Assembly: GCA_963802385.1 (NCBI GenBank)
Contig: CAWDIO010000020.1
Location: 12,422 to 76,421 of the forward strand
Length of the DNA stretch: 64,000 nucleotides
Source of the DNA: an uncultured Acidimicrobiales bacterium
GTDB taxonomy: Bacteria; Actinomycetota; Acidimicrobiia; Acidimicrobiales; VFJN01
Direction: 5' to 3'
Shown here piece by piece: positions 2,651 to 49,195 of this stretch. The notes beneath the pieces were generated by a model. The model saw nothing but the letters and a program-made list of their open reading frames with translations. It did no database searches and was not told the origin of the DNA. Made by a program: the position numbers and the translations under genes. Every line of letters starts with the position of its first letter. The stretch's first letter is position 1.

Positions 2651-2653
2651 ACC

Positions 2654-7044: not shown

Positions 7045-7065
7045 CGCAAACCGCCGCAGGCCCGT

Positions 7066-27463: not shown

Positions 27464-28447
27464 ATGGATCCCTCTGGTAACGGCGCCGCGGGGCAGGTCG
27501 AGTGGTTCGCCGACCGCTACGAAACCCTGGCCCGCAACGTCGAGACGTTCATCCGGGGCAAGCCCGAGGTCGTCCGGGCCGCCCTGGTGTGCATGTTCGC
27601 CGAGGGGCACCTCCTCATCGAGGACGTGCCCGGCGTCGGCAAGACCTCCCTGGCCAAGGCCGTGGCCAGCTCGATCGGCGCCTCCATGCGCCGCATCCAG
27701 TTCACCCCCGACCTGCTGCCCACCGACGTGACGGGAGTGCAGGTCTACGACGACCGCACCCGCCAGTTCGAGTTCCGGCCCGGCCCGGTGTTCTCCAACG
27801 TCGTGCTGGCCGACGAGATCAACCGGGCCTCGCCCAAGACCCAGTCGGCGCTCCTGGAGGTCATGGACGAGCGGCAGGTCACGATGGACGGCACCACCTA
27901 CCCCGTCGCCCATCCCTTCATGGTCATGGCCACGTCCAACCCGGTTGAGCACGAAGGCGTCTACCGGCTCCCCGAGGCCCAGCTGGACCGCTTCCTCATG
28001 CGCATCGAGGTGGGCTACCCGGCGGCGGCGGCCGAGCGGGAGATCATGGAGAACCGCATCCGCGGCTACGCCCCCGAGCAGCTCAGCTCCGTGCTGACGG
28101 TGGACGAGATGCGCCAGATGATGATGGTCGCCCACCAGGTCTACGTGGCGCCGGTGCTCCAGGAGTACATCGTGGCCGTGGTGTCGGCCACCCGGCGCAT
28201 GCCCGAGCTGCGGTTGGGCGTGAGCCCCCGCGGCAGCCTGGGCGTGGCCATCGCCGCACAGGCCGTCGCCGCGGCCAGCGGGCGCCCGTTCGTGACCGCC
28301 CAGGACGTCAAGCAGGTCACCCCCAACGTGCTGGCCCACCGCATGATCCTGCGGCCCGAGGCCCAGCTCCAGGGGCACACGCCGGAAGCGCTGCTGGACA
28401 CGATCCTGTCGGCCGTCCCCGTGCCCCAGGACCGGGCCCGGGTCTGA
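27464..28447 (+). CDS. MoxR-family AAA+ ATPase
   Basis: Walker A EDVPGVGKT, Walker B/sensor VVLADEINRASPKTQSALLEVMDERQVT, and PEAQLDRF. Confidence 0.9.
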   Translation: MDPSGNGAAGQVEWFADRYETLARNVETFIRGKPEVVRAALVCMFAEGHLLIEDVPGVGKTSLAKAVASSIGASMRRIQFTPDLLPTDVTGVQVYDDRTRQFEFRPGPVFSNVVLADEINRASPKTQSALLEVMDERQVTMDGTTYPVAHPFMVMATSNPVEHEGVYRLPEAQLDRFLMRIEVGYPAAAAEREIMENRIRGYAPEQLSSVLTVDEMRQMMMVAHQVYVAPVLQEYIVAVVSATRRMPELRLGVSPRGSLGVAIAAQAVAAASGRPFVTAQDVKQVTPNVLAHRMILRPEAQLQGHTPEALLDTILSAVPVPQDRARV

Positions 28448-28454: not shown

Positions 28455-29600
28455 GTGCTCACGGGGTCGGGGAAGGCCGCCGCCCTCGCGGGCCCGCTGC
28501 TGCTGGCGGTGGGGGCCGCGGTCCACTGGCCGGAGCTGATGGCGCTCGGCGTCGGCTGCCTGCTGGCCCTGGCCGCCTCCCTGTGGTGGCTGCTGCGCCG
28601 GCCCGAGCTGGTCGCCACCCGCGAGATCACCCCGCCCCGGGTCCGGGAGGGCGAGCGGGCGGTGGCCGTGCTGAGCCTGCTCAACGCCGGAGCGCACCGC
28701 AGCCCGCCCATGCTGGCCACCGAGCGGGTCGGCCGGCGGCGGGTCGGGGTGCGGCTGCCGAGCCTGCCCCGCGGCGGGTCGACCACCGTCACCTACGACC
28801 TGCCCACCGACCAGCGCGGGCTGCACCTGGTCGGCCCGCTCACCCTGGCCCGCTCCGACCCGCTGCGCCTGGTGCTGGTGGCCCGGGACCACGGGACCCG
28901 CTCGGTGCTGGCCGTCCATCCGCGGGTCCACGCGGTCGAGCCGGTCCCCACCGGCCGGGCCCGGGACATGGACGGGCCCACCTCGCTGGCCTCGCCCCAG
29001 GGCGGCATCGCCTTCCACTCCCTGCGCGAGTACGTGCCGGGCGACGACCTCCGCCTCATCCACTGGCGCTCGACGGCGCGGACCGGCCACCTGATGGTGC
29101 GGCACAACGTGGTGCCCAACGAGCCGCGCATGATGGTGGTGCTCGACACCAGCGCCTCGCCCTACACCCGCGAGTCGTTCGAGGACGCGGTGCGGGTGGC
29201 GGCCTCGCTGTGCGTGGCCGCGTTCGAGGCCGGATTTCCGCTGCGCTTCGCCACCACCGGCGGCGTCAGCGCCCTGTGCGAGCGGGGCACCGACGCGGGT
29301 GCCGCGGTCCTCGACCTGCTGGCCGGGGTGGAGGCGTCGCTCGACGATCCCGGCCTGCCGGCGCTGGTGAACATGGTCCCCGACGACGACGGCGTGTCCC
29401 TGGGAGTGGTCACGGGCCAGCCCGGGGGCGGCGAGCTGCGGGCGGTCACCGCGGTGCGGAACCGCTTCGACATGGTCAGCCTGGTCCAGGTGGGTGAGCT
29501 GTACGACCGCGCCCCCACCGCGGTGGCGGGCGCCTACGTGGTCAACTGCCGCACCAGCGAGGACTTCGCCCGCGTCTGGAACGGCGGCGTCCGCCGCTAG
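28455..29600 (+). CDS. DUF58 domain protein (vWA-like MoxR partner)
   Basis: GTG start 7 nt after the moxR stop. Two N-terminal TM spans. Signature LREYVPGDDLRLIHWRSTARTGHLMVR. Confidence 0.85.
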   Translation: MLTGSGKAAALAGPLLLAVGAAVHWPELMALGVGCLLALAASLWWLLRRPELVATREITPPRVREGERAVAVLSLLNAGAHRSPPMLATERVGRRRVGVRLPSLPRGGSTTVTYDLPTDQRGLHLVGPLTLARSDPLRLVLVARDHGTRSVLAVHPRVHAVEPVPTGRARDMDGPTSLASPQGGIAFHSLREYVPGDDLRLIHWRSTARTGHLMVRHNVVPNEPRMMVVLDTSASPYTRESFEDAVRVAASLCVAAFEAGFPLRFATTGGVSALCERGTDAGAAVLDLLAGVEASLDDPGLPALVNMVPDDDGVSLGVVTGQPGGGELRAVTAVRNRFDMVSLVQVGELYDRAPTAVAGAYVVNCRTSEDFARVWNGGVRR

Positions 29601-29728: not shown

Positions 29729-32516
29729 TCAGGCGGCCGTCGAGTTCGACAGGATGATCGCGGCCAGCTGGGTCCGGTTGCGGACGCCCAGCTTGCGGTA
29801 GATGCCCTGGAGGTGGAAGTCCACCGTCTTGACGCTGACGAACAGCTGCTCGGCGGCCTGGCGGTTGGACAGCCCGTGGCCCACGGCCAGGGCCACCCGG
29901 AGCTCGGCTTCGGTGAGCCGGGAGGCCAGCGAGCGGGTGCGGGAGCCGGCCTCACCCCGGGCCGTGGAGGCGCGCTCGCTCCAGGAGCGGGCGCCCAGGC
30001 GATCGAAGTGCGACCGGGCGGTGGCCAGGTCGCGGGCACCCGCGGCCTCCTGGCCCTCGGCCAGGCGGTGCTCGCCCCGCATCAGCAGCGTGCGGGCCTC
30101 CTCGAACGCGGCGTTGATGGAGTGGAAGCCCTCGAGCGCGGCGGCGAAGCGCTCCTCGGCGGGCGGGCCCTGGCCCAGCAGCGCGCCGCACCGGTGGGCG
30201 GCCGCCGTCGGCCAGATGCGACCGGTGCGGTCCGCCTGGCCCTGGAGGACCTCGTACTGGTAGAGGGCGTCGGTCACCCGCCCGGCCCGCGCCAGTGCCT
30301 CGATGCAGTCCGCCTGCCACCACAGCCAGCCCGGCTCGACCACGATGTTGGCGTCGGCCACCAGGTCGAAGGCATCGGCCGCCTCGTCGAAGCGGCCGGC
30401 GCCCAGGTGCAGCAGGCCCTTCGCCGTGACCGCGCACACGCCGAGCTGGGCCAGACCCAGCCGCGCCGACGCGTCGATGGCCTGCTCGGCGTGGTCGAGG
30501 CACTCGTTGTCGTGGCCCATGCTGGCCTCGATCCGGGCCAGCACGGCGTAGGCCAGGGGTATGAGGTGGCCCTGCCCCACCGCCCGCTGCAGGGAGATGA
30601 GCTGGCTCATCTCGGCCAGCGCATCGGCCCACCAGCCGACCCGCCACAGGCCCTCGATCAGCGCCAGGCGCGAGAAGATCGACCGCCCCGCCAGCCCGGC
30701 GGCGTCGCTCTGGTGGATCATCTTGCGCAGCATGTCGATGGCCGACTGGGCGTTGTCGCAGATCAGCTGGGCGAGGGCGCAGAGCTGGATCACGCCCTCG
30801 GCGGCGTCGGTGTGCTTCCCCGGCTCGTAGAGCTCGATCGCCATCTGACCGATGGGCAGCACCCGCTCGCCGATGGCCTCGGCGCTGCCGAGGAACAGCT
30901 CGACCACCGCGGCTGGCCGCGGCCGCCCCCAGCTGGAGCTGGGGGTCGCCCGCCTCGGCCGCGTGCTTGGCCGCCTGCTGGGCGTTGCCCAACGCGCCGG
31001 GCAGGTCGAGGGCCAGGAAGCGCGACCCGGTGGCGCACAGATGCAGGACCGCCGCCAGCGTGGGGTCCAGGTCCCGCACGGCCCGGGCGTGGAGCTCGAA
31101 GCGGGGGGTGGCGACCGCCGGGCCCAGCACCCAGACCTCCGCCTGGCCCAGCACGGCGGCCATCTTGGCCTTCGCCACCGGGTCGTCGATCGTCTCGATG
31201 ACCGGGCTCAGCGTGGCCTGGGCCTTGTGGTGGTCGCCCGAGGTGTACTGGGCGTAGCCCGTCATGATCGTGCGCTCGGCGTAGGCCGCCGGGTCGGTGG
31301 TGAGCCGGGCCGACTGCTCGAGCGCCAGAGCCGCGGCCGGGAGCGCGCCGCGGCGCATCGCCTCCATGCCCAGGTCGAACATGCGGGCGGCCACCGCGTC
31401 GTCCGGTCCCACCACGCTCTCGGACAGGTGCCACAGGGCGCGGTCGTGGCGCCCGGCGTCGGTGGCCGCCTCGGCCAGCGCCCGGTGCAGGCCCCGCTGG
31501 CAGCCGACGTCCAGCAGGTGCAGCACCGCGGCCCGGACCAGCGGATGGCGCCAGTGGACCTTGCCGTCCACCAGCTCGATCACGCCCGCGGTCTCGGCCG
31601 GCGCCAGGTCGTCGAGCCTGCCGCCCACCCGCGCCAGCGTGGTGCCCACCATGGCCACGTCGTCGTCGGCCTCCAGCGCGGCGACGCCCAGCGCCGTCAG
31701 CGTGGCCGCCGGCAGCTGGGCCAGCTGGGCCCCGAACGAGTCGACCAGCCGCTCGCCGATGGGCAGGATCGCCGGCAGGGGCGAGGCGCCGGTGCGCTGG
31801 CCGGGGTGGAGCGCCCGCCCGGCCTCGATGAGGGCCAGGGGATTTCCCCGGGTGAGCTCCCAGCACTGGGTGGCGACCGCCTGGTCGACCCCCGCCTCGC
31901 CCAGCAGGCCGACCGCCGCCTCCTGGGGCAGGCCCCCGAGGACCAGCCGGTCGAAGTCGGTGCGGTCGAGCAGGCAGGGCAGGCCGGTCCGGTGGGCGAA
32001 CAGGAAGCCGACCCGGTCGGCCTCGCAGCGGTGGGCCACGAAGACCAGCGACTCCAGGCTCGACTGGTCGATCCACTGGGCGTCGTCCACCGCCACCAGG
32101 ACCGGCGCCTCCTCGGCCGCGGCCGACACCAGCGCCAGCGTGGCGCCGTGCACGGCCAGCAGCCGGCCCTCGGCCTCTACCAGGCCCAACGCTCCCCGGA
32201 GGGCCCGCGCCTGGCTGGGGTCGAGCTGGTCCAGCCGGTCCAGCAGCGGGCGGACCACGGCCGACAGGCCGCTGAACGCGAGCCCCTTCTCGAACTCGAC
32301 CCCGGTGGCCCGCAGCACGGTGAACCCGCGGCGGCGGGCGTCGCGGATCGTCCAGTCCACGAGGGCGGACTTGCCCAGGCCCGCCTCGCCGGAGAGGACG
32401 GTGACCTGCGAGCTGGCGGAGGCCACGGCGTCGAGCATGCGACCCAGCGAGGCGAGCTCCTCGTCCCGCCCGACCGGTTGTTCCACCGTGGTGATCGTCC
32501 GCTGCTCGATGACCAT
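29729..32516 (-). CDS. LAL-type (large ATP-binding LuxR family) transcriptional regulator, one frameshift near 30900
   Basis: N-terminal Walker A LSGEAGLGKSAL, Walker B VLVAVDDAQWID, a long TPR-like middle, and C-terminal LTEAELRVALAVGHGLSNRQAAEQLFVSVKTVDFHLQGIYRKLGV (LuxR HTH). Confidence 0.8.
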
Positions 32517-32606
32517 CGCTGAGCCCCCACCCTAGGTGATCGGCAGCGGTGACCTACCGCGCGTCCCCGGGTCGCTTCAGGGGTCGATCGTACGCCAACT
32601 GCGACA

Positions 32607-32619
32607 CTCTGTAACAGAG
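32607..32619. promoter_or_regulatory. palindrome CTCTGT-A-ACAGAG in the divergent LAL / transglutaminase intergenic region
   Basis: Perfect 6-bp arms. It is embedded in the least GC-rich part of the 255-bp intergenic region, with further ACAG/CTGT words nearby. Confidence 0.3.
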
Positions 32620-32771
32620 CGGATTACAGCACTTGTGCAAACCAGGCATTCACCCGGTGCACATCTTCTGTACCCCGTCGCACCATGGCGGCCGGCTGGT
32701 GTGAGCGTCGGACCATACCCCCTTCGGCCTCCACCGGCCCCCTCCTTCAGAACTCACCGGATCGGCGGAAG

Positions 32772-35141
32772 ATGCAGTCCACCCAGGAGCGCACAACCGA
32801 GATCGCGCTGTGCTGCGCACTCACCTGCGTCGCAGGTGCGGTGTACGCGGACTACTTCTCGGGCTGGCGCTTCCTGGTGCCGGTGATCGCCGGCGCGGTT
32901 CCCGCCGCGCTGGTCATCTCCGCCACTGCGGCCCGGGGCTGGCGGCCCGGCCGCAGTGCGGCTCTCGCCCTGGTGCTCATGCCCGTGGCGGGCGCGGCGC
33001 TCATCTACGCCGTGCCCGACGCGGGCGTGGCCGGCATCGGCGAGGCGCTGGCCACCTTCCGGGGCGGCGTCACCGAGGGCTGGTCGGCCATGCTCAACGC
33101 GGGCCTGCCGGCCGACCTGCGGGGCGAGCTGGTGGTGACGCCCTTCGTGCTGAGCTGGCTCGCCTGTGCGGCCTCCGCCCTCCTGGCCGTCCACACCGAG
33201 GGGCCCATCGTCCCCCTCGGCCCTCCCACCCTGGCGCTGGTGGCGGCGCTGGCGCTCACCGGGTCCCACGCCCGGCACCAGCTCGCCGTCGCCCTCGCCT
33301 TCCTGCTCGTTGCGCTCGTGCTGATGCTGGTGCGGGCCAACCGCGTGGTCTCCGCTGCCCTGACCGAGGCCCTCGGCAGCCCCGGCAGCTCCCCCGATGG
33401 CAGCGGGGACCGCGCCAGCTCGCCGAACGCGGCCCGGCTCCACACCCCGGCCGGCCGGGTCGCGTTCGGTGTACCTCTCGTCGTGGGGATCGCGGTTGCG
33501 AGCCCGCTGGCCGCCGGCGCCCTCCCGCCTGCGCGTGGCGACCGGCTGGACCCCCGCGATCTCCGCGGCGAGCGACTCCAGATCGACGATGCGCTGAGCC
33601 CCCTCGTCCTGCTGAAGTCCCAGCTCAAGGCGGAGCCACCCCAGCCGCTGTTCCGCATCACGATCGAGGTCGGCGGAGATGCGCCCGATCGGGTGCGGAC
33701 GGCGGCGCTGGACACCTACGACGGCGCCCTGTGGACCACGACGGGCGACTACCGGCGAGCGGGGAGCGAGCTGCCCGGCGACGCGGTGCTGGGGCACCTG
33801 CCGCCCGGCGCCAGGGTCCGCCAGAGCATCACGATCCTGGGGCTGGAGGGACCGTTCCTCCCCGCCGCCGGTCGTCCGTTCCGCCTCGACGGCGACCTCG
33901 ACGAGGCCGTCATGGGCTTCGACCCCACGGCCGGCACGCTGGTGTCGGCCCGCACCCACCTGAGGGGCCTGAGCTACGACGTGGAGAGCGCGGTCGTGGC
34001 CCCCAGCGACGACGAGCTGGCCGCCACCACCCCGGGCTCCGACCCGGCGCTCGACTCGCTGCGGGCCACGCCGCCGAACCTGCCCGCCAACCTGGCGACG
34101 CTGGCCCAGGCGTGGACGGCCGAGGCGCCGTCCCGGGTGGGTGAGCTGCTGGCGCTGCGCGACGGGCTGCGGTCGATCCGCTACGACGACTCGGTCGACG
34201 CCGAGCCCGGCCACAACTACGACGCCCTGGAGCGTGTGCTGCTGGGCGACGAGACCGAGCGCGAGGGCTACGCCGAGCAGTTCGCGGCGGCCTTCGCGGT
34301 GCTGGCCCGCACCCGCGGCTTCCCCGCCCGGGTGGCGACCGGCTACCTGCTGCCCGAGCCCGGCCCCGACGGCGTCATCACCGTCACCGAGGCCGATGCC
34401 CACGCCTGGCCCGAGGTCTACTTCGACGACCTGGGCTGGGTCCCGATCGAGGCCACCGGGAGCCGGAGCGAGTCCGCTCCCGAGCCCGACGACGTCCAGG
34501 CGCCCCCCGGGCGGCCCAGCAACGCACCGAGCGACGCCTCCCAGGCGAGCCCGCCGGTGCCGCCGGCCGTGGTCGAGGCGACCGTGGACGGCGACAGCGA
34601 AGGCAGCGGCGGGGGTGTGATGGCCCCCGCCGCGGCCGGAGGGATCGCGGCCTTCGTCGCCTCCGCCGGCCTCTTCGCCCTCCCCGCGGCCGCCAAGCGC
34701 TGGCGCCGCTCCCGGCGGCGCCGGGCGGCCTCCGCCTCGGCCCGGGTGGTCGGCGCCTGGCGCGAGACCCTCGACCGGCTCGTGGAGCTGGGCATGCCGG
34801 TCGCTCCCTCCCTCACCGCCTCCGAGGTCGCCGCCCGTGCCCGGGACCGGTTCCCGCAGGGCGCCGCGGCCGTGGGCCAGCTGGTCCCGCTGGTGGCGGT
34901 GGCGGTGTACGCCCCCTTCGAGCCCGAAGGTGCGGCGGCAGATCACGCCTGGCGACTCGCCAGCGACGCCCGGTCATCCCTACGGCGAGGGATCGGCCCT
35001 GGGCGCCGGCTGCGGGCCATGGTGGACCCCCGGCCGTTGCTCGGCCCTGGCCGCCAGGTTCGGCGTGCCGACCGTGTGCAGACCGCAACCCCCACCGCGG
35101 TAGCCACGGTCGGCGACGCCGGTCCCCATGAGGTCTTGTAG
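32772..35141 (+). CDS. transglutaminase-like membrane protein (TgpA/DUF3488-type), catalytic Cys position occupied by Ala
   Basis: Six or more N-terminal TM spans. Core GYAEQFAAAFAVLARTRGFPARVATGY...DAHAWPEVYFDDLGWVPIEAT. A C-terminal TM plus DUF4129-like tail. Uninterrupted ORF. Confidence 0.8.
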   Translation: MQSTQERTTEIALCCALTCVAGAVYADYFSGWRFLVPVIAGAVPAALVISATAARGWRPGRSAALALVLMPVAGAALIYAVPDAGVAGIGEALATFRGGVTEGWSAMLNAGLPADLRGELVVTPFVLSWLACAASALLAVHTEGPIVPLGPPTLALVAALALTGSHARHQLAVALAFLLVALVLMLVRANRVVSAALTEALGSPGSSPDGSGDRASSPNAARLHTPAGRVAFGVPLVVGIAVASPLAAGALPPARGDRLDPRDLRGERLQIDDALSPLVLLKSQLKAEPPQPLFRITIEVGGDAPDRVRTAALDTYDGALWTTTGDYRRAGSELPGDAVLGHLPPGARVRQSITILGLEGPFLPAAGRPFRLDGDLDEAVMGFDPTAGTLVSARTHLRGLSYDVESAVVAPSDDELAATTPGSDPALDSLRATPPNLPANLATLAQAWTAEAPSRVGELLALRDGLRSIRYDDSVDAEPGHNYDALERVLLGDETEREGYAEQFAAAFAVLARTRGFPARVATGYLLPEPGPDGVITVTEADAHAWPEVYFDDLGWVPIEATGSRSESAPEPDDVQAPPGRPSNAPSDASQASPPVPPAVVEATVDGDSEGSGGGVMAPAAAGGIAAFVASAGLFALPAAAKRWRRSRRRRAASASARVVGAWRETLDRLVELGMPVAPSLTASEVAARARDRFPQGAAAVGQLVPLVAVAVYAPFEPEGAAADHAWRLASDARSSLRRGIGPGRRLRAMVDPRPLLGPGRQVRRADRVQTATPTAVATVGDAGPHEVL

Positions 35142-38068
35142 GTGGCCCGGCCGAGCGGCCGCCCTCGGGCGGCCGCACTGCAGTTCGGCGCGGCGCTGGT
35201 GGTGTGCTCAGTGCTGGGAATCGCAGTGGCACAGGGCGAGGCGGACCCTCCGGCCGAGCTCGACCTGCGGGGTGGCGGCGCCTGGGTGGCGTCCTCGACG
35301 GTGGGCCAGCTCACGCTGATCGACGGCGGCACCGCCGAGGTGGCGGCCCGGGTCAAGGTGGCGGAGACCGCCACCGACCTGGGTGCCGTCCAGTCCGGCT
35401 CCGTGGGCTACGCCCTCGACCGGGCGCAGGGGACCGTGCGGCGGGTGGACCCGGCCACGTTCGTGGCCGCGGCGCCGGTCGAGGTCATCGAGGGCGCCCG
35501 CGGCGACCTGTCGGCCCACCCCAGCGGCGACGTGGTCTACGTGGTGGACCACGAGCGGGGCCGGGTGGCGGTGGCCGACGCGGGGTCGCTGTCGGGCCTG
35601 CGCGGCGAGGTGCAGTCGCTGGCCGAGGCGGTCGCCTCCAGCGTGGTCGACGAGGCGGGCCGGCTGTGGGCGCTGGGCGCCACCACCGGCGACCTCACCT
35701 GGTTCGACGGCACCGAACGCAACGCCCGGCGGGGCGTGGTGGCCGACCCGGCGGGCGCCGAGCTGGTGGTGGTGGACGGCCGGGCGGCGGTGGTCGAGCG
35801 CTCCGGCCGGGTGGTGCGCACCCTGGGCGGCGACGGCGGGTTCCTGGCCGAGTCGTGTCTGGAGATCGAGCCGACCGACCGCTCCGTGCGGGTGGCGGGC
35901 TCGGACGGCCGGCGGCGCCTGTACGTGGTCTCGGGCGACGACGGGGTGCTGCGGGTCAGCGACCTGGCCTCCGGCGACTGCGGCGCGGTCGTGGTCGACA
36001 TCGCCGTCCCCGGCTCCGACCTGGGCACCCCCCAGGAGGCGCGGGGCCGGGTGTTCATCCCGGACTACACGCGTGGCACGGTCGTCATCGTCGACCTGGA
36101 GTCGCGCGAGGTGACCCGCACCGGCGAGCTGGTGGCGCCCGGCACGGAGTTCGAGCTGTTCGACAAGGACGGCATCGTCTTCTACAACGACCCGGGCAGC
36201 GAGCGGGCGGGCGTGGTGCGCATCGACGGCACGTTCGACTCGGTGCGGAAGTTCGACCCCGACCGCCCCGGCAGCGGGGTGGTGCCCGAGGACGGCCGCG
36301 ACCAGCCGGCGGGGACCGGCGAGGGCGGGCTGGGCGGGTCCGATCCCGGCGGCGGGGACGAGCAGGCCGAGGCGCCGGACCCGCCGGGCGGCGACGACCA
36401 GCAGGACCAGCCCGGCGAGGACGGCGGCGACGAGCAGGACGAACAGGACGAGCCGGATCCGGGGGACACCCCGGACCCGGGGGCCACGGAGCCGGAGGGC
36501 GCGGGACCGTCAGCCACGCCCGATCCCGGCTCCGTGCCCCCTGGATCCCGGCGGGCCCATCGTGCCCGGCAATCCCGTGCCGGGCACCCAGCTGCAGATC
36601 GTGGCCTCGGCGCTGGCGGCCGAGATCGGCGGGTCGATCGACATGTCGGTGCGCGCGGTGGCCGAGGGCGAGACGGTCGCCGACGCGACCTGGGACTTCG
36701 GTGACGGCGGCACCGACCGCGGCACGCGCACGTCCCACGCCTGGGATGCGGCGGGAACCTTCCGCGTCCGGGTCCAGGGCACCCTGGGCTCGGGCGCGAC
36801 GGCCACCGGGGTCGCGGACTTCGTGGTGCGGCCCCCGACCCCGGTGGCCCTGCGGGCCGACTTCAGCTTCACCCCCAACAGCGGGATCGAGACCTACACG
36901 CCGGTGACCTTCACCGACCTGTCGCAGGGCGGCCCCACCTCCTGGAGCTGGACGTTCGAGCGGGCCCTCGGGCCCGGAACCTCGGCCCTGCCCTCGCCGC
37001 CCGCCCAGCAGTGGGGGATCGCCGACACGTTCACCGTCACGCTGGTGGTGCGGCGGGGCAGCGAGAGCGACACCGTCACCCGCACCGTCACCGTGAACGA
37101 CCCGCCCCCACAGGCGCCCGCGGTCATGGACATCGTGTCGACCGAGGGCCCGCCCTACGACGACCAGACCGCCTACACGTTCTTCGCCCACCATGTGGCC
37201 AACCCCGTCGACACGTGCGTCTACACGTTCCAGGGGACCAACGTCGACTGCGTGCTCGTCCCGAGCCACGGGACCACGATGCTGCAGGGCACCCACCGCT
37301 TCCCGGCGGGACGCCACACCATCCGGCTCACCGTCACCGGGCCCGGGGGCATCACCACCCGCACGCTGACCATCGACGTGGTCGCCCTCACCCCGCCCGT
37401 CGCCCGCATCACGGTCACCGGGGCGATGGACAACGGCGGGACCTGGTCGTCCACCGAGGGCATGCCGGTCACGTTCGACGGCAGCGGCAGCACAGGCACG
37501 TTCACCCAGCTGGACTGGCGCGACCTGGTCACCGGGGCCACCGCCACCGGCCCCACCTGGACACCCGCGCTCGAGCGTGGGCCGCCACACCATCCGGCTC
37601 ACGGCCGTGTCGCCGCGGATGGGCGACGCCACCCGTGACGTCATCATCGACGTCTCGCCCGCCGACACCACCCCGCCCGACGGCTCGCCGTCGATGGTCG
37701 ACCCCTTCCCGGTGGCGCACACGACGTTCAGGGCCACGGCGGACGACCCCGAGAGCGGGATCACCCGGGTCGAGCTCTACGGGCGGTTCCACGGGGCCTG
37801 CCTCCCGCCGGGGGTGTACGACCCGGCTGGCCCCCCCGACCAGGGCGGTGTTCCGGTCAACCTCGATTTCGAGACCACGCCGTTCGCCGTCGGAACGGGC
37901 GGCCAGCTCGTGCCGGACGGAGGGACCGGCGTGACCTTCACCGCGGGGCTGGACCTCTGCACCGGAGGGCTCGACTACGTGCCGCCCATGCGGATCGAGG
38001 TGTGGGCCGTCGTCACCAACGGCGCCGGCCTGAGCTTCCGCACCGGGCTCTTCATGCTGATGACGTAA
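35142..38068 (+). pseudogene. secreted/membrane-anchored beta-propeller + acidic Pro-rich linker + PKD-repeat protein, tandem copy 1 (two frameshifts)
   Basis: GTG directly after the TGase stop. Signal/anchor AALQFGAALVVCSVLGIAVAQG. A ~330-aa propeller-like head, a D/E/P/G linker, then PKD-type units (WDFGDGGTD, FSFTP...VTFTDLS...SWSWTF). Frame breaks at the C run ~36536-36541 and at a G run ~37575. TAA 38066-38068. Confidence 0.7.
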
Positions 38069-38079
38069 GAGGTCACGCC

Positions 38080-41044
38080 ATGCGCGGCAACCACCGGACA
38101 TTGGGGCTGAAGCTGGGGGCGGGGGTGGTGGCGTGCTCGGTGCTGGGTGCCGCTGGTGGCGCAGGGTGACGCGGCGCCGCCCACCGAGCTGGACCTGCGG
38201 GGCGGCGGGGCGTGGGTGGCGTCGTCGACGGTGGGTCAGCTCACGCTGATCGACGGGGGCACGGCCGAGGTGGCGGCGCGGGTCCAGGTGGCGGACGACG
38301 CCGACCGAGCTGGGGGCGGTGCAGTCGGGCGTCGTGGGCTACGCGCTCGATCTCGGCCAGGGACCGTGCGCCGGGTGGACCCGGCCACGTTCGTGGCCGC
38401 CGGCGCCGGTGGAGATCATCGAGGGCGCCCGCAGCGAGCTGTCCCTGCACCCCAGCGGCGACGGTGATGTACGTGGTGGACCAACAGCGGGGCAAGGTGG
38501 CGGTCACCGACGGCACGTCGCTGTCGGGGCTGAAGGGCGAGGTGCAGTCGCTGGCCGAGCCGGTCGGCTCCAGCGTGGTGGACGGGGCCGGCCGGCTGTG
38601 GACGCTGGGCGCGGGGACCGGCGACCTCGTCTGGTTCGACGGCACCGAGCGCCACGCCCGCCGGGCGGTGGCCGAGGACCCCCGCGACACCGAGCTGGTG
38701 GTGATCGACGGCCAGCCCGCGCTGGTGGACCGGGCCACCCGGCTGGTGCGCACCGTGGGCGACGACGGCGGGCTTCCGGGCCCGGTCCGTGCCTGGACAT
38801 CGACCCGGCGGACCGCTCGGTGCGGGTGGCGGGCTCGGACAAGGCCCGGCGGCTGCTGGTGGTGTCGGGCGACGACGGCGTGCTGCGGGTGAGCGACCTC
38901 GGCTCGGGGGAGTGCGGCGAGGTGGTGGTGGACGTGGCCGACCCGGACTCCGACCTGGGCGCGCCCCAGGAGTCCCAGGGCCGGGTGTTCATCCCCAACT
39001 ACACGACGGGCAAGGTCGTCATCGTCGATCTGGAGACCCGGGAGGCCAAGCCCACCGGCGAGCTGGTGGCGCCGGGCACGGAGTTCGAGCTGTTCGAGCG
39101 GGACGGCATCGTGTTCTACAACGACCCCGGCAGCGAGCGCGCCGGCGTGGTCCGGGTGGACGGCACGTTCTCCGAGGTCGAGAAGTACGACCCCGAGCGC
39201 CCGGGCGCGGGCCTGGTGCCCGAGGCCGGCCGCGACCAGGCGCCGGTCCCCGACCTGGCCGCCCCCGGCAACGGCGAGGGCATCGACGAAGGCGCCCTCG
39301 GCGGCCCCGACCAGGGCGGCGGCCCGGACGAGGTGGCCGACGGTCCCGATGCCGAAGAGGTCGACGGTCCGGCGGACGAGGCCCCCTCCGAGCTGGGCGG
39401 CGACGGGTCGACGGACCCCGTCCCCGGGACCGGTCCTCCGGGCGGCGAGCCACCGACCGGTGGTCCGGGCCCCGTCACCCCGCCGCCCGGAGGTGGCGGC
39501 GGTGGGCCGACGCAGCCATCGCCGGGGGTGCGCATCGACATCGTCACTTCGGCGCTTTCCGCGGAAGGTGAACGAGCCGTTGCGGTTGGAGGCGCGGCCA
39601 CGGGATCCCGACGACGAGATCAGCGACGTCTCGTGGGCCTTCGGTGACGGTGAATCCGATACCGGCACCGTGACGTCGCACGCCTGGGATGCAGCCGACG
39701 ACTACGAGGTCACGGTCAACGCAGTGCTCAACGGCACCGACCCGGTCGGCACCGCCACCGAGATCCACATCCTGCCCCGGGCGCCCGAGCCGCCGGTGGC
39801 CGACTTCACGTTCACCCCCACCACCGCGGAGACCAACCAACCCGTGATGTTCACCGACCGGAGCGATCCGGTGCCGACGTCCTGGGAGTGGACCTTCGAC
39901 GGCGCCACGGGCAGCGGCACCTAGCTCGTGCCCAACCCGCCCGCCCAGACCTGGGACCAGCCCGGCCGGTACACCGTCACCCTGCGGGTCGAGCGCGGCG
40001 GCCTCGAGGACACCATCGAGCGGACCGTCACGATCGAACGGCCCCCGCCCACCGCCCCGGTGGTGACCGAGATCCGCTCCAATCCCGATGGCCCGTACAA
40101 CCAGCGCACCTCCTACGAGTTCCTGGCCACCGTGACCAGCGGCCCGGCCACCCCTTGCCGCTTCGTCATCGACGGCACCGCCCAGCGCCTGCGCCCCACG
40201 CTCCGGCGGCGTGGTCGCCTCACCGGCGCGGACCTTCCCCCAGGGCGGCGCCCACCGCATCCAGCTCGTCGTGGGTGACCCCGCGGCCGAGACCACCCGC
40301 GAGCTCGACATCACCGTCCAGGTCCTCCAGGCCCCCCAGGCATCCATCGCCGTCAGCGGCGCCGCCGGGTCCGGCGGCAACTACACGGCGGTGGCCGGCG
40401 ACAACCTCACCTTCGACAGCGGGGGCAGCACCGGCGCCATCGAGACCTGGACCTGGCGCGACGACGCCACCGGCAACACCCTCCAAGGGCCCGTGTGGAA
40501 CACGGCCCTCCAACAACCCGGACCCCACCGCATCACCCTCACCGTCGACCACTCCGTCATGGGCAGCGACACCGCCGAGGTGACGGTCACCATCACCGCC
40601 CGCGACGCCACCGCCCCGGTGGTGGAGACGCCGTGGACCCTCTTCTACGGGCCGACGTACCAGGCCGAGGCCCGGTCGACGCGACCCGGAGACCGGCATC
40701 GTCAGCATCGAGCTCTACGGCTCGATCTTCGGCGACTGCCTGAGCAACGGCACGGTGGTGGGCAGCTACAGCATCGGCGGCGGAGGTCTCATCTCCCGTG
40801 GCACGATGGGCAACGGGCTGGACATCGACAGTGAGGGCTGGACGCGGATGGCGCCGATATCTGCCCACCGGCTGTCCCGAGGGCACCAACGACCTGACCT
40901 TCGACATCACGCTGTGGTCGGTGTCGACGAACGGCCACGGCCTCGACCACCCGCAGCGACGACCTACCGAAGCCCGTCGACGGCGACCGGACTCACCCTT
41001 TCGCGCCTGGGCTGTTCATGGTGATGACAAGAGGGATCGACGCG
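38080..41044 (+). pseudogene. beta-propeller + PKD-repeat gene, tandem copy 2, heavily disrupted
   Basis: ATG 38080 with AAGAGG 8 nt upstream. Collinear with copy 1, but a sense reading needs about 11 frame changes plus an in-frame TAG at 39922-39924. The terminal stop is missing, so the reading runs into copy 3. Confidence 0.7.
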
Positions 41045-43976
41045 ATGAGCGCTGACCGCAGCACGACGGGTTTGAAGCTGGGGGCGGGGCTCGTCGTGTG
41101 CGCGGTGCTGGGCGCCCTGGTGGCGCGGGGCGATGCCGCGCCGCCCGCCGAGCTGGCCCTGCGGGGCGGCGGGGCGTGGGTGGCGTCCTCCACAGTGGGC
41201 CAGCTCACGCTGATCGACGGGGGCACGGCGGAGGTGGCGGCGCGGGTCCTGGTGGCGGAGGGCACGACCGAGCTCGGTGCCGTCCAGTCCGGCAACGTGG
41301 GCTACGCGCTCGGACCTCGCCCGGGGCACCGTGCGCCGGGTCGATCCGGCCACGTTCGTGGCCGGGTCGCCGGTCGAGGTGATCGAGGGCGCCCGCCGCG
41401 ACCTCACGCTGCACCCGAGCGACGACCTCATGTACGTGGTCGACCACGAGCGGGGCAAGGTTGCGGTCACCGACGGCCCGGTCCCTGTCGGGCCTGAAGG
41501 GTGAGGTGCAGTCGCTGGCCGAGCCGGTGAGCTCCAGCGTGGTGGACGGGTCGGGCCGGCTGTGGACGCTGGGTCAGGAGACCGGCGACCTCGTCTGGTT
41601 CGACGGCACGGAGCGCCACGTCCGCCGGGCGGTGGTGCACGACCCGGGCGACACCGAGCTGGTGGTGATCGACGGCCAGCCCGCGCTGGTGGACCGGGCC
41701 ACGTGCCTGGTGCGCACGGTGGGCGACGACGGCGGGTTCCGGGCCCGGTCCTGTCTCGACATCGACCCGGCGGATCGTTCGGTGCGGGTGGCGGGCTCGG
41801 AGGGGGCGCGGCGGCTGTTGGTGGTGTCGGGCGACGACGGGGTGCTGCGGGTGAGCGACCTGGGCTCGGGGGAGTGCGGCGAGGTCGTCGTGGACGTGGC
41901 CGACCCGGACTCGGACCTGGGCGCGCCCGAGGAGTCCCAGGGCAAGGTGTTCATCCCCAACTACACGACGGGCACGGTCGTGATCGTGGACCTGGAGACC
42001 CGGGAGCGCGCCAGACCACCGGCAAGCTGGTGGAGCCGGGCACCGAGTTCGAGCTGTTCGAACGGGACGGCATCGTGTTCTACAACGACCCGAGCAGCGA
42101 GCGGGCCGGTGTGGTGCGGGTGGACGGCACCTTCGCCGAAGTGGAGAAGTACGACGCCGACCGCCCGGGCGCGGGCGTGGTGCCCGAGGGCGGGCGGGAC
42201 CAGGCCCCGGTCCCGGACCTGGCCGCCCCCGGCCGCGGCCAGGGGACCGACGAGGGCGCCCTGGGCGGCCCCGACCAGGGCGGGGGCCCCGACGAGGTCA
42301 CGGACGGGCCCGACGCCGAGGAGGGCGACGGTCCTGCGGAGTCCCCGCCCAGCGAGCTCGGCGGGGACCGGTCGGCGGAGCCCGTCCCCGACTCCGGTCC
42401 CCCGGGCGTCCTGCCGGACCCGACCCCCGGACCCCTGACCCCGGCACCCCCGACCCGGGAACACCGGCACCGGCAACCCGGTGCCGGCCGACGGGATCGA
42501 CTTCACGGTCGACCAGGCCGCGGCCGACATCGACGAGGAGGTCCGCTTCACCGCCTTCGCCACGGATCCCGACGACCGGCTGAGCGACGTCTCCTGGCAG
42601 TTCTCCCTCGACGACGTTCCGGCCGGCGAGGCCACCGGCAACCCGCTCGACCACTCCTTCGCCGACGCCGGCACCTATGAGGTCAGCGTCCAGGGCACGC
42701 TGCGCTCGGGCTCGGAGCCGGCCCGGACCGTGTCCATCGTCCACAGCTTCCGGGTCCTGGACCCCACCGTGGAGCTGGTGGCCGATTTCTCCGGCCCGCC
42801 GACGGCCGAGACCGGCCAGCCGGTCACCTTCACCAACCTGTCGACCGGCGCCACCCGGTACTCCTGGAGGTTCGAGGGCGCCCGACGCCCCGACACCTCG
42901 ACCCAGCGCACGCCGCCCCAGCAGTTCTGGGAGACCGCCGGAACCTACACGGTGACGCTGGAGGTGCGAGCGCGGCAACGAGCGGCGGCAGCAGAGCCAG
43001 GACATCGTCATCAGCGACCCCCTGCCCGACCTGCCGGTCGTCGGCCCCATCACCCCCAGCCCGGCAGGACCGTACGACACGACCATGACCATCACGTTCA
43101 GGGCCGACCTCACCGCCGACCCCTGGGACGAGTGCTGCTTCACCATCGAGGGGGCACGGGTCGACTGCGACCCGACGCCGATCGCCGGCGGCACCCGGTT
43201 CTCGGCCAGCCACCGCTTCACCACCGAAGGCAGCAAGACCATCACGCTGACCGTCCGCAACGCGGTGCGGCTCCGCGAGCCCCAGCCCGCTGGTCATCGA
43301 CGTCGACCGAGCTGACGCCTCCGACCGTGGCGATCGAGGTGACCTCGGGCGCCGATCTCGACGCCGGCGTGTGGGTGACGGACGACCACAGGCGGTGACG
43401 TTCGACGGTGGCAGCAGCCGGGGCGACTTCGACCGCTACTTGTGGCGCGACGAGTCGACCGGCGCCACCTCCAGCGGGCCGGTCTGGACGGTCACCCTCG
43501 ACGGCGGCCAGCACATGATCACGCTCACGGTGGTGTCCGACCGGCAGGGCGGAATCCAGAACTCGGCCTCGGTGCCCGTGGACGTCCTCATCGCGGAGCA
43601 GGCACCCCCCGAGGTTGGGGCGATCCTCGGACAGCACGCCTGCCGAGGGGTTGGGGGGCCGGGCGTTCCACCCGTTTGTGACCCCATCGCGAGGATCCAG
43701 CTCTTCGGCCGGTTCGAGGGGGCGTGCGTCGACGAGAAACGGGGTGGAGACGCCCTTCGACGTCGACCGGCGGGGAGCCACCCCGCTGGCCGAGGCCGTA
43801 CCGTCCGAGCTCCCCGGCCCCGCCCCGGACGGGGACGGGTCACCTTCTTCACCGGCTACGACTTCTGTCCTGCCGGCGACCAGTTCGGCCCGGCCATGGA
43901 TGTCGAGGTGTGGGCGGTCGCCTACACCGACCGGGCGGGCCAGCGGGGCGAGAGCGAGCACATCATCAGGCCGTGA
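41045..43976 (+). pseudogene. beta-propeller + PKD-repeat gene, tandem copy 3, heavily disrupted
   Basis: ATG 41045 (MSADRSTTGLKLGAGLVVCAVLG). Collinear with copies 1 and 2. About 9 frame changes are needed. TGA 43974-43976. Confidence 0.7.
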
Positions 43977-44643
43977 AGCGGTAGCCCATCCCCGGCTCGG
44001 TCACGATGTAGCGGGGCTGGGCCGGGTTGGGCTCCAGCTTGCGGCGCAGGTTGGCCAGGTGGACCCGCAGGTAGTTGCTCTCCTCGCCGTAGGCGGGGCC
44101 CCACACCTCCCGCAGCAGGTGCCCGCGGGTCACCAGCCGGCCGGCGTTGCGCGCCAGCACCTCCAGCAGCCCCCACTCGGTCGGGGTCAGCCGGATGGCG
44201 CGCCCGTCCCGGCCCGTGACCCGGCGATCGGCCAGGTCGATGCGGAAGTCGTCGGTCTCGACCACCGGGGCCTCGGGCGCGGGCGAGGTGCGGCGCAGCG
44301 CGGCGCCCAGGCGGGCGAGCAGCTCGGCCATGCCGAACGGCTTGGACACGTAGTCGTCGGCGCCCGCGTCCAGGGCGACCACCTTGTCCTCCTCGGAGCC
44401 CCGGGCGGAGAGGATGATGATCGGCACCGCGCTCCAGCCCCGCAGCCCGCGGACCACCTCGATGCCGTCGATGCCCGGCAGGCCGAGGTCGAGGATCACC
44501 ACGTCGGGATGGTGCCGGGCCGCGAGCTGGAGCGCCTGCTCGCCGGTCGAGGCCAGCAGCACGTCGTAGTCGCGGACCCGCAGGTTGGCGGACAGGGCCC
44601 GCTGGATCGGGGGCTCGTCGTCGACGACCAGCACGGCGGTCAC
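43966..44643 (-). CDS. OmpR-family response regulator, KdpE-like paralogue
   Basis: GTG 44643. VLVVDDEPPIQRAL...VILDLGLPGIDG...ILSARG...DAGADDYVSKPF receiver plus the LTPTEWGLLEVL...YLRVHLANLRRKLEP...EPGMGYRF wHTH. Very similar to the kdpE at 48077. Confidence 0.85.
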   Translation of the reverse strand: MTAVLVVDDEPPIQRALSANLRVRDYDVLLASTGEQALQLAARHHPDVVILDLGLPGIDGIEVVRGLRGWSAVPIIILSARGSEEDKVVALDAGADDYVSKPFGMAELLARLGAALRRTSPAPEAPVVETDDFRIDLADRRVTGRDGRAIRLTPTEWGLLEVLARNAGRLVTRGHLLREVWGPAYGEESNYLRVHLANLRRKLEPNPAQPRYIVTEPGMGYRFTA

Positions 44644-44657
44644 GACGCCCGCTCGAC

Positions 44658-44717
44658 CTAACTCGCCGCGAGGCCGAAGAATCCGATGGTGACGAGGACG
44701 AAGAGGATGTCCTTCAT
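44658..44717 (-). CDS. 19-codon hydrophobic micro-ORF (MKDILFVLVTIGFFGLAAS), speculative
   Basis: Its ATG overlaps the TGA of the USP-like gene (ATGA). A single TM-length hydrophobic peptide that ends 14 nt before the response-regulator start. Confidence 0.25.
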   Translation of the reverse strand: MKDILFVLVTIGFFGLAAS

Positions 44718-45127
44718 GTGCTGCTCCCGGCCGGGGTGGGGACGGGGACGAGGATGCTGATGACGCGGGGATCGCCGTCGACGCGCGCCGCGATGCGCTC
44801 GGCGGTGCCGTCGTGGAGCAGCCGGTGCCAGCTGGTGGAGGGCAGCAGGCGCCCGGCCACCACGACCACGTCGGCGGCCCCCCGGCGCAGCTCGTTCCGC
44901 ACATGCGCCGCCACGGCGGCGGCGACGTCGCTGCCGTCCACGATGACCAGGGGCTCGGGGTGCTCGGCCGCCATCCAGCGCAGGCCGAGGGCGTGGGCCC
45001 GCCGGGCGTCGGTGGCCACGTGCACCGCGACGTGGCGTGCGGCCCGGGTCCGGCGGGCGACCTCGAGCGCGGCGGTGGCCCGCCGGTCGAGGATGCCCAC
45101 GGGCACGACGACCACGCGCTCGCTCAC
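44714..45127 (-). CDS. universal stress protein-like (adenine nucleotide alpha-hydrolase fold) protein
   Basis: GTG 45127 overlaps the OB-fold gene stop (GTGA). RVVVVPVGILD...HVAVHVATD...ADVVVVAG pattern. Confidence 0.55.
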   Translation of the reverse strand: MSERVVVVPVGILDRRATAALEVARRTRAARHVAVHVATDARRAHALGLRWMAAEHPEPLVIVDGSDVAAAVAAHVRNELRRGAADVVVVAGRLLPSTSWHRLLHDGTAERIAARVDGDPRVISILVPVPTPAGSST

Positions 45128-45454
45128 GGCTCGATCCAGATCAGCGGGTTCATGAGCACCGGCCGCCCGTAGCGGCGCACGGCCACGCCCTCCGCGGTCA
45201 GCCGGTGTCCGGGCTCGACGCCCGCGATGTGACGGCGCCCGAAGAAGACCGCCTCCAGCGAGCCCGTGCGCGTCCCGCAGCTCCACCTCCAGCACGGGCC
45301 CGCCGGGCCACTGGCGTGGGCGGGCCGCGGTGACGGTCCCCCGCACCGCGGCGCGCTGCCGGCAGCGCAGCGACCCGATGGGCATGACGTCGGCCGGCGG
45401 GTTGACGGTGTCATCCCACGGGCGGGACGGCGCTCCGGTGGACGGTTCGTTCAT
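45124..45454 (-). CDS. OB-fold nucleic-acid-binding domain protein, one frameshift near 45270
   Basis: MNEPSTGAPSRPWDD...IGSLRCRQRAAVRGTVTAARPRQWPGGPVLEVELRD, then in another frame GSLEAVFFGRRHIAGVEPGHRLTAEGVAVRRYGRPVLMNPLIWIEP. Confidence 0.6.
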
Positions 45455-45503
45455 GTCCCCGTCGTACCGCCGGGCCCCGCGCCCCACCATGGCCTTCACT
45501 GGG

Positions 45504-45536
45504 TCTTAGTGCGCCTGAGCAGGTTCTTAGCGCGTC
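45504..45536 (+). promoter_or_regulatory. direct repeat TCTTAG(T/C)GCG spaced 21 bp in the divergent OB-fold / kdpD intergenic region
   Basis: TCTTAGTGCGCctgagcaggtTCTTAGCGCGT. It lies 29 nt upstream of the kdpD GTG and is a candidate response-regulator site. Confidence 0.3.
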
Positions 45537-45564
45537 CTTCACGCCTCAGCGATGATGGAACCCG

Positions 45565-48766: not shown

Positions 48767-48778
48767 TCCGCGCTCGGA

Positions 48779-49168
48779 ATGCTCCCGCAGGCAAGGAGCA
48801 CACCGGAGCAGAGGAGATGGCCGGTGAACCTCATCCAAGCGAGCACGCTCCTGCTGCAACAGCAGGAGCCGGGCGCGGCCGACCCCGCGGCCCGGAACCC
48901 GGGCGACATGCTCAACGACTTCTTCGCGTCCAACCCGTGGCTCACCGCGCTCATGGCCGGCGTGGGGGTGGTCCTGGTCCTGTGGGTGATCCTGCGGGCC
49001 GTCTGGCAGGCCAGGGAGGAAGGCAGCGGCCGGGCCGGGCTCACCGCGGTGCGGGGCGCCCTGCTGGCCATGCTGCTGTTCATCCCCAGCCTGATCGGTG
49101 AGATCGCCAGCGTCGCCTACACCGGGGTGACGGCCGTGGCCGACTGGTTCTTCAACCTGCTCGGCTGA
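48779..49168 (+). CDS. small two-TM protein, VirB2/TrbC-pilin-like topology (start uncertain)
   Basis: Two hydrophobic helices (WLTALMAGVGVVLVLWVIL and ALLAMLLFIPSLIGEIA) joined by a charged loop. Alternative starts are ATG 48908, or ATG 48817 (good SD) in another frame. Confidence 0.4.
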   Translation: MLPQARSTPEQRRWPVNLIQASTLLLQQQEPGAADPAARNPGDMLNDFFASNPWLTALMAGVGVVLVLWVILRAVWQAREEGSGRAGLTAVRGALLAMLLFIPSLIGEIASVAYTGVTAVADWFFNLLG

Positions 49169-49195
49169 CCCGGGAGGACCGAGAAGGGAGGACCT

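Follow-up and report, generated by a model that had tools for sequence, protein, structure and literature searches.

A three-copy propeller-PKD gene array downstream of a MoxR-DUF58-transglutaminase operon in an uncultured Acidimicrobiales bacterium

We analyzed a 64,000-nucleotide (nt) stretch of DNA from an uncultured Acidimicrobiales bacterium (assembly GCA_963802385.1, contig CAWDIO010000020.1), referred to below as the window, across which the G+C content is 72-80%. Downstream of an operon for a MoxR-type ATPase, a DUF58 protein and a membrane transglutaminase (the triad), the window carries a tandem array of three genes, termed copies 1, 2 and 3 (c1, c2 and c3), each encoding a protein with an N-terminal signal or anchor, a predicted beta-propeller head and a tail of PKD domains. 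This three-copy tandem array is genuine in the sequence. Taken jointly, the observations probably describe three paralogous genes for extracytoplasmic proteins located downstream of the triad operon, where c2 is a mosaic and the frame breaks that interrupt c2 and c3 are assembly errors.

Layout and relatedness of the three copies

Copy boundaries were established by repeat finding and a three-way MAFFT alignment, which place c1 at 35142..38068, c2 at 38080..41044 and c3 at 41045..43976, all on the forward strand, with start-to-start spacings of 2938 nt (c1-c2) and 2965 nt (c2-c3). The first-pass annotation of this DNA, made from the letters alone, had proposed three collinear copies with these same starts and periods, and its layout is confirmed, as is its description of conserved heads and divergent tails. 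Over ~1.1 kb of head, nucleotide identity amounts to 89.8% between c2 and c3, 83.5% between c1 and c2, and 81.5% between c1 and c3; beyond alignment column ~1300, in the tails, it drops to 38-68% in every pair. The high identity of c2 and c3 heads that had been estimated by eye in one stretch also stands (153 of 164 positions, or 93%, in register), although the two sequences had at first been aligned with a 12-nt offset.

The GTG start of c1 immediately follows the TAG stop of the transglutaminase open reading frame (ORF; 32685-35141), as had been claimed, and the same abutment (tgtag directly followed by GTG) is common to the window and to L001, L004, L005 and L006, where L001, L002 and so on denote related loci and the suffixes A and B their first and second propeller-PKD genes. 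The c1/c2 junction reads ATGACGTAAGAGG (in context ...CTGATGACGTAAGAGG...ATG) and the c2/c3 junction reads ATGACAAGAGG (in context ...GTGATGACAAGAGG...ATG). The two sequences bear out the earlier statement that the TAA present at the first junction is gone at the second, by which c2, having no stop codon, is placed in frame with the c3 ATG and reads into it. At the other end of the array, the 3' end of c3 overlaps the 3' end of a convergent response-regulator gene by 11 nt, and the same overlap is found in L006. The c3/response-regulator boundary corresponds to the native end of copy B, which L006 and L004 share.

The array had at first been interpreted as a tandem triplication; alignment to the related loci contradicts a recent triplication of one gene. 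The c1 gene is 85% identical to L004_A at the nucleotide level over its full length, with 775 of 968 residues identical in the frame-aware alignment. The c3 gene, likewise over its full length, is 84% identical to L004_B and 82% to L006_B; after correction, 728 of its 975 residues are identical to those of the intact L006_B, and no stop occurs in its 975 codons. Judged by these similarities, c1 is the orthologue of A and c3 the orthologue of B, two distinct and widely conserved paralogues that relatives normally carry together, and c2 is an extra, mosaic copy that combines a B-type head with a third type of tail. The c2 head is 87-89% identical to B-type heads. The c2 tail has no close relative and, in local tblastn searches of the fetched loci, comes nearest to the second copy of L002/L012 (46-47% amino-acid identity). 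When the reconstructed c2 tail was searched against a database, generic PKD proteins dominated the output and family members were not recovered.

BLASTN aligns L004 positions 1675-11384 collinearly with window positions 29733-39450, and L004 9992-13619 with window 41035-44648; therefore, the window carries an extra segment, composed of the c2 tail and the c3 head, relative to L004. These long collinear blocks are 85-88% identical, whereas the c2 head in alignment columns 500-1200 is 94-99% identical to the L004_B head (c3 there is 85-94% identical). Since this patch is far more like L004_B than the collinear blocks are, the c2 head is itself a mosaic. The patch, window 38580-39330 against L004 10500-11250, suggests a recent recombination or gene-conversion tract of ~700 nt. 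The last seven codons of c2 and its ribosome-binding region (GLFMVMT, AAGAGG) resemble those of c1 (GLFMLMT, AAGAGG), unlike the A orthologues of relatives, which end in ...LLFT or ...FLFT. This pattern indicates probable unequal or homologous recombination between conserved heads or junctions, with whole copies gained or lost between lineages, and recombination of this kind, from one conserved head to another, may have created or maintained the c2 gene. The array is an ordinary expansion of paralogues, shaped by recombination.

Frame breaks, constraint and rival explanations

Frame breaks were counted with a purpose-written frameshift-aware protein-to-DNA aligner, using intact orthologues as guides. 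The conserved flanking genes (17.1 kb) contain four breaks, at 26662, 30911, 47207 and 51697, of which three were scored as +1 and one as +2. The two breaks of c1 (2.9 kb), both +1 and located at ~36543 and ~37573, do not differ from this flank rate (P = 0.15). In c2 (3.0 kb) we counted 12 breaks, 11 of them +1, in addition to an in-frame TAG at 39922-39924 (Poisson P = 1e-11 versus the flank rate), and in c3 (2.9 kb) 10 breaks, seven scored as +1 and three as +2, with probably one more compensated pair, that is, 10 to 12 in total (P = 3e-9 versus the flanks). The break density in c2-c3 is ~17 times the flank rate. The heavy loads reported at first for c2 (about 11) and c3 (about 9) are therefore close to those given by the aligner, and the count of two in c1 holds as well; of these two, only one lies at a clear homopolymer, a C5 run, and the other adjoins a GGG run, so that the earlier assignment of both to homopolymers is half correct.

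Single-base insertions make up most of the c2 and c3 breaks, a type also seen in the conserved genes of the flanks. When ten heads were aligned, private indels were confined to c2 (six insertions and one deletion) and c3 (four inserted bases), with none internal in the other eight sequences, and many of them fall outside homopolymers. The in-frame TAG is present where it had been reported, and sits where homologues have Ser or Thr. It had been regarded as impossible to create by indel error; however, it can arise either by one substitution or by an adjacent insertion and deletion (ACC[T]AG(C)CTC), and is compatible with sequencing error. Homopolymer content is equal in c1, c2, c3 and the transglutaminase gene. 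No shared motif, methylation-type site or long homopolymer was apparent at the break sites on inspection by eye, and Tandem Repeats Finder returned only three short, low-scoring arrays, none coinciding with the breaks.

Selective constraint was assessed from NG86 estimates of omega (dN/dS), which serve for comparison between lineages and not as absolute values, given a low synonymous divergence (dS ~0.3) that probably results from extreme codon bias at third positions (GC3). Tails evolve faster than heads in every lineage, with omega of ~0.46-0.76 and 0.24-0.31, respectively. For heads, omega is 0.255 in c2, 0.238 in c3 and 0.237 between L004_B and L006_B, and for tails it is 0.62 in c3 versus 0.66 in L004_B. 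Considered per domain, heads (81.5-89.8% nucleotide identity among the three copies) show omega of ~0.25 and tails (38-68%) of ~0.5-0.75, in agreement with the early proposal of a secreted or anchored surface-type protein with a variable distal end. Private codon changes in the heads comprise four synonymous and five nonsynonymous in c2, 13 and three in c3, nine and two in L004_B, 20 and 12 in L006_B, and 20 and nine in L005_B. Private amino-acid changes number six in c2, 11 in c3 and 5-15 in the orthologues, that is, without excess, and the conserved head motifs are retained in frame-corrected c2 and c3, as judged from alignments inspected by eye. The relaxed substitution-level constraint that characterizes pseudogenes was thus found in neither copy. 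If the seven indels in the 1.2-kb c2 head were neutral, ~40-100 extra amino-acid changes would be expected at an assumed indel-to-substitution frequency of ~1:10, and six were found.

A similar burst of breaks occurs in L004, where a single break lies in the 10-kb span of duf58 to copy A and is followed by six in B, two in the response-regulator gene and six, together with a stop, in kdpD; the majority are +1. L004 and L002 belong to the same ENA assembly (ERZ25039531), and related loci are MFD 'contig_N' metagenome-assembled genomes (MAGs) with Flye-style names; MFD-type assemblies, L004 included, are taken to be nanopore assemblies. These sequence comparisons make long-read consensus errors, and not pseudogenisation, the most likely source of the breaks in c2 and c3, and probably also of the TAG and the lost TAA. 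The 'graded decay' of the first-pass annotation is accordingly not supported as biology: omega is like that of intact orthologues, private changes are not in excess, +1 breaks also occur in the flanks, and L004 shows its own burst. Most economically, the stretch beyond copy A would vary between strains, have thin or mixed read coverage and, for that reason, be poorly polished.

Several observations weigh against this reading. The excess of breaks is confined to c2-c3, with none in the adjacent 0.68-kb response-regulator gene. Three of the six L004_B breaks lie within two codons of c3 breaks (codons 741/742, 756 and 927/929, corresponding to window 43262, 43308 and 43832 and to L004 12241, 12282 and 12796), although L004 was assembled independently; we estimate the chance of this coincidence at ~0.002. 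At codon 741/742, an extra base after AAC is common to c3 and L004_B. The coincident breaks suggest either a systematic context-dependent basecalling error or a few real shared indels. In addition, the TAG and a 2-nt deletion differ from the +1 type that dominates the errors of the window assembly. Finally, for the placement beside the triad, we infer a functional link of the propeller-PKD genes to the triad from conserved gene order and stop/start coupling only.

It is unlikely that c2 and c3 are true pseudogenes, decaying after expansion of the array had made the distal copies dispensable. The 12 and 10 breaks, against two in c1 and four per 17 kb of flanks, speak for such decay, as do the in-frame TAG and the missing stop codon of c2, and the six breaks of L004 copy B, three of them near c3 positions. 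However, head omega of 0.24-0.26 equals that of intact orthologues, nonsynonymous private changes are not in excess, and the six amino-acid changes seen in the c2 head fall well short of the ~40-100 expected under the assumed 1:10 ratio. Moreover, the breaks are mostly 1-nt insertions, many outside homopolymers and of the type seen in conserved flanking genes, the L004 burst runs on into the response-regulator and kdpD genes, and B is intact in the short-read assembly L006.

Alternatively, the third copy may itself be an assembly artefact, in which the differing second copies of two strains (with a B'-tail and a B-tail) were threaded in tandem and the true genome holds A plus one. We consider this quite unlikely, since the 3' end of c2 specifically matches that of c1 in its GLFMVMT and AAGAGG elements and the junctions thus look like within-genome recombination, the c2 tail is at most 46-47% identical to any other sequence found and so does not reproduce that of any known co-occurring population, and the highly similar patch of ~700 nt is below typical long-read length. 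The artefact would nevertheless fit the lack of any three-head locus among 51 related loci fetched, where downstream sequence sufficed (two is the usual number), as well as the second-position genes of relatives, which in L002/L012 hold the tail nearest to that of c2 and in L004, L006 and L009 are of the c3 type. It would also agree with the coincidence of the error-dense zone with c2-c3, as low or mixed coverage would give, and with the 94-99% identity of the c2-head patch to L004_B against 85-88% for the collinear blocks. The idea that the breaks are functional, through programmed frameshifting or surface-protein phase variation, is hardly credible. Surface-protein genes are classical targets of phase variation and the breaks are concentrated there, but 10-12 scattered breaks per gene go beyond any known recoding mechanism, the sites lie mostly outside repeats and long homopolymers with no slippery motif apparent by eye, the tandem repeat arrays do not coincide with them, and breaks of the same type occur in housekeeping flank genes.

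The preferred reading, three paralogous genes with a mosaic c2 and consensus errors in c2 and c3, carries a wider point: frameshift clusters in long-read MAGs can mimic pseudogene decay, and comparing indel load with substitution-level constraint separates error from decay without reads.

Encoded proteins and operon context

Each copy encodes an N-terminal signal/anchor, a beta-propeller, an acidic disordered linker of ~100 amino acids, and four to five PKD/Ig-like beta-sandwich domains. In c1, the signal/anchor is located at ~35142-35260, the propeller at ~35274-36250 and the linker at ~36250-36580, followed by about five PKD/Ig-like domains up to 38065. The c1 tail ORF (36562-37638) belongs to the PKD domain proteins by Pfam matches above the gathering score, with PKD_4 (PF18911) at 56.4 bits (cutoff 27) and PKD (PF00801) at 55.3 bits (cutoff 23.5) in two stretches, and its orthologue P0001 gave the same outcome. 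The c1 head has neither a Pfam nor an NCBIfam match in scans of the window proteins, and no curated YVTN, lactonase or PQQ propeller model from these collections reaches threshold on it; a sub-threshold PQQ_2 match was found in one cultured homologue only, and YVTN-family proteins scored weakly when the head was used as a search profile (E = 1e-8 to 1e-3).

The c1 head, modelled with AlphaFold2 from 47 sequences, is all-beta with ~30 strands (pLDDT 85.8, pTM 0.80). The top Foldseek matches of this model in the PDB are NirF, cd1 nitrite reductase, BamB, AztD, virginiamycin B (Vgb) lyase and 1L0Q, and all among the 50 matches listed contain a propeller or are complexes containing one, with TMq up to 0.63. 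The head is thus predicted with high confidence to adopt a beta-propeller fold of 7-8 blades. In the full-length model of P0001, a low-confidence hydrophobic N-terminus (residues 1-39) is followed by the propeller (residues 45-370), a disordered acidic Pro/Gly linker (residues 376-479) and about five Ig-like beta-sandwich domains (residues 480-965). The architecture initially proposed, a signal/anchor, a propeller, an acidic Pro/Gly linker and PKD units, is borne out by the Pfam PKD matches and the structure models.

A search with the frame-corrected c1 protein returned 52 homologues, the closest of which covers 100% of c1 at 79% identity. Most full-length homologues are intact, 920-980 amino acids long and labelled 'PKD repeat protein', and the named ones come from Acidimicrobiales MAGs. 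Of 1.84 billion cluster representatives searched by phmmer with the head alone, 832 matched at E <= 1e-3, of which 258 reached E <= 1e-30; the ~830 representatives of the head family stand for clusters at 50% identity. In almost all of these matches the head begins 30-70 residues from the N-terminus. Among the tails joined to the same head in other family members are thrombospondin-3 repeats, cadherin-like domains or InlB-B-repeats, the first two in proteins encoded on metagenome contigs, and in homologues from cultured actinomycetes PKD domains plus PASTA, InlB-B-repeat or a right-handed beta-helix. These alternative tail modules are of extracytoplasmic types. The gene family had gone unrecognised in the first-pass annotation, and it is indeed uncurated, without a Pfam or NCBIfam model on the head; the head forms a sizeable family that could be defined as a new domain family.

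The triad shows all sequence-level features of a MoxR-DUF58-transglutaminase operon, namely an AAA_3 MoxR, a DUF58 gene just downstream, and a multi-transmembrane (multi-TM) transglutaminase after it on the same strand. The first gene, at 27464..28447 (+), encodes a MoxR-type AAA+ ATPase (MRP-like) with AAA_3 (214 bits) and AAA_lid_2 (72.5 bits), has 97% amino-acid identity to the L001 orthologue and contains no frameshift. The gene for the DUF58 protein, the vWA-like partner of MoxR (28455..29600, +), starts 7 nt past the moxR stop and is intact when aligned to L001; its product matches Pfam DUF58 at 49 bits (cutoff 23.4) and carries no further domain. The TgpA-like membrane transglutaminase (32685..35141, +) combines TgpA_N, Transglut_core and DUF4129, its homologues align from 32772, and c1 starts right after its TAG stop. 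A minus-strand gene (29732..32516) for a large LuxR-type AAA_16/GerE regulator with a Pfam AAA_16 match separates the transglutaminase gene from duf58; orthologues of this regulator are 929-931 amino acids long and carry GerE, and a +1 break near 30911 leaves 854 of ~929 amino acids in the ORF list. The triad that had been placed beside the array is therefore physically linked to it, though interrupted by this regulator. The insertion is kept in all close Acidimicrobiales loci and is absent from cultured Actinomycetota, where the triad genes are contiguous; in the window the transglutaminase is split from duf58 with the same strand kept.

The order MoxR, DUF58, AAA_16-GerE regulator, transglutaminase, A and B recurs in five metagenomic contigs (L001, L002 and L004-L006). 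In L006, a short-read assembly, A (876 amino acids) and B (975 amino acids) stand in tandem, both intact, followed by the convergent response regulator; the contigs of L001 and L005 end inside, or shortly past the start of, the second copy. A head-profile scan of one genome per GTDB species gave 45 loci, and in 28 of them the gene immediately before the head gene encodes a transglutaminase homologue, usually with DUF58 and MoxR in front of it. Carriers among the 28 include Amycolatopsis, Lentzea, Catenulispora, Kibdelosporangium, Actinocrispum, Streptomyces echinatus, Frankia, Parafrankia and Actinophytocola. Within the stretches fetched, about eleven of the surveyed loci have two heads and no locus has three; the copy number beside the triad in relatives is one or two. 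This conservation of gene order argues that the link of the propeller-PKD genes to the triad is probably real and old. Further head-family paralogues lie distant from any MoxR-DUF58-transglutaminase genes in the same genomes (L003/L013, L019, L024-L026, L030 and L034), so that the head family is not strictly tied to the operon.

Divergently upstream of moxR, on the minus strand at 25042-27378, are an HSP70-like gene (orthologue 807 amino acids; +1 break near 26662) and a DUF6980 gene, a pairing that recurs across most Acidimicrobiales loci. Downstream of the array, the convergent OmpR-type response regulator (43966..44643, minus strand; Response_reg and Trans_reg_C) is identical to the L006 regulator at 207 of 225 residues (92%) and has no frameshift. 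In L004 and L006 a KdpD-like kinase gene follows the response regulator after copy B, and L004 adds kdpC, kdpB and kdpA fragments. In the window, the regulator is directly joined to sequence matching L004 20716-22182 (43966-46100 against L004 12938-22182); the kdpD-kdpCBA block is thus missing and the KdpE-like regulator orphaned. No KdpD remnant was found beside the response regulator in 44.6-45.6 kb, and the ~0.9 kb at 44651-45555 contain no recognisable gene, the 261-amino-acid minus-strand ORF there having no Pfam match. Further downstream, a histidine kinase/response regulator pair (46894-48760; break near 47207 in the kinase) is flanked by genes for two conserved proteins without Pfam or NCBIfam match, of ~450 amino acids (45555-46892, +) and ~914 amino acids (49657-52417, +; break near 51697). 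The gene set at 45555-52417 also follows the second propeller-PKD gene in L002. Rfam and tRNA scans of the window returned nothing relevant.

Proposed role and comparison with known systems

In the mechanism that we propose, the N-terminal anchor would place the propeller beside the membrane, next to the TgpA-like enzyme, as the constant membrane-proximal part of the protein. The propeller might work with the membrane transglutaminase, or be processed or cross-linked by it, and MoxR and DUF58 could act as an ATP-driven chaperone and adaptor. The linker and Ig-like domains would project outwards, so that the tails form the distal, fast-evolving, environment-facing part. In its strong form, which we hold only tentatively and regard as doubtful, the proposal states that MoxR-DUF58-TgpA in Actinomycetota would be a biogenesis or anchoring machine for this propeller-headed surface family and not a free-standing chaperone/protease triad. 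The propeller would then be a constant handle that the transglutaminase recognises, processes or cross-links, and tandem paralogues would recombine head to head, which would reshuffle their tails and make strains differ in copy number. If true, the long-unexplained triad would gain a concrete client. The co-encoded exported protein, coupled stop-to-start to the transglutaminase gene, is a testable candidate client or partner of the triad, and several organisms that carry it (Amycolatopsis, Lentzea, Catenulispora, Streptomyces echinatus and Frankia) are available in culture. The conserved four-part operon and the uncurated propeller family are worth keeping.

The three-gene operon of MoxR (MRP), DUF58/vWA and transglutaminase (YebA/TgpA-like) was described by Snider & Houry 2006 and Wong & Houry 2012, as cited in PMC6803598. 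A membrane-proximal system has been proposed that recruits substrates through its vWA protein, has them unfolded by MoxR and cleaves them with its TGL domain (Zhang & Aravind 2012, PMC3495828); in an alternative view, as cited in PMC6803598 and PMC12067865, MoxR proteins are chaperones. The operon is found very commonly among prokaryotes, and ideas on its function are still conjectural (PMC3495828, PMC12067865). Like this operon, the window has an AAA_3 MoxR, a DUF58 protein and a multi-TM transglutaminase (TgpA_N, Transglut_core, DUF4129) in the same order. Unlike it, one to three exported propeller-PKD genes follow, stop-to-start coupled, in the window and in 28 of 45 loci, and the minus-strand AAA_16-GerE gene splits the triad in the Acidimicrobiales set.

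Of the described systems that include a surface protein, the closest is the bifidobacterial PFNA cluster, pkb2-fn3-aaa-atp-duf58-tgm (PMC8430577, PMC6803598), for which fast, species-specific evolution of the surface protein and tgm has been reported (PMC6803598). Both are actinobacterial MoxR-DUF58-transglutaminase clusters with a large secreted or anchored protein of Ig-like domains (FN3 in PFNA). However, the window has no Ser/Thr kinase gene (pkb2) or FN3 gene next to the cluster, and has the minus-strand DUF6980 and HSP70-like genes upstream of moxR. Its surface-protein genes are located downstream of tgm, whereas that of PFNA lies upstream of the ATPase gene, and they encode a beta-propeller head plus PKD instead of FN3 and are tandemly multiplied. 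With pkb2 and the upstream FN3 gene lacking, the locus was not assigned to PFNA, and no named bifidobacterial protein was returned by the profile search with the head.

The Methanosarcina mazei surface-layer protein 1L0Q, the second-best Foldseek match (E = 1.7e-11), likewise has a YVTN propeller followed by PKD, but its sequence identity to the head is ~14% and its TM-score to the head model only 0.44. This archaeal protein is not known to have a MoxR or transglutaminase context. The MoxR-vWA-beta-propeller ternary conflict systems (Kaur, Burroughs, Iyer & Aravind 2020, PMC7159879; Pfam PF20030 bpMoxR) resemble the window in co-encoding MoxR, a vWA-type partner and a beta-propeller, and PF20030 matches the window MoxR weakly (33 bits). 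Their hallmarks are VMAP, iSTAND or FtsH third components and effector-laden vWA proteins (PMC7159879). In contrast, the window MoxR is a classical AAA_3 protein (214 versus 33 bits), its DUF58 partner has no effector domains, a membrane transglutaminase is present, and the propeller protein has a signal/anchor (an N-terminal hydrophobic segment) and extracytoplasmic tail modules; membership of the conflict systems was rejected, since their defining features are absent from the window locus.

Literature searches found no paper that combines MoxR, DUF58 and a beta-propeller. The first-pass suggestion that the locus is not a described system therefore stands for the propeller-PKD partner and needs amendment for the rest, since the triad is well known and a triad with an Ig-like surface protein has been described (PFNA, PMC8430577). 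The array is an uncurated but widespread extension of the known triad operon.

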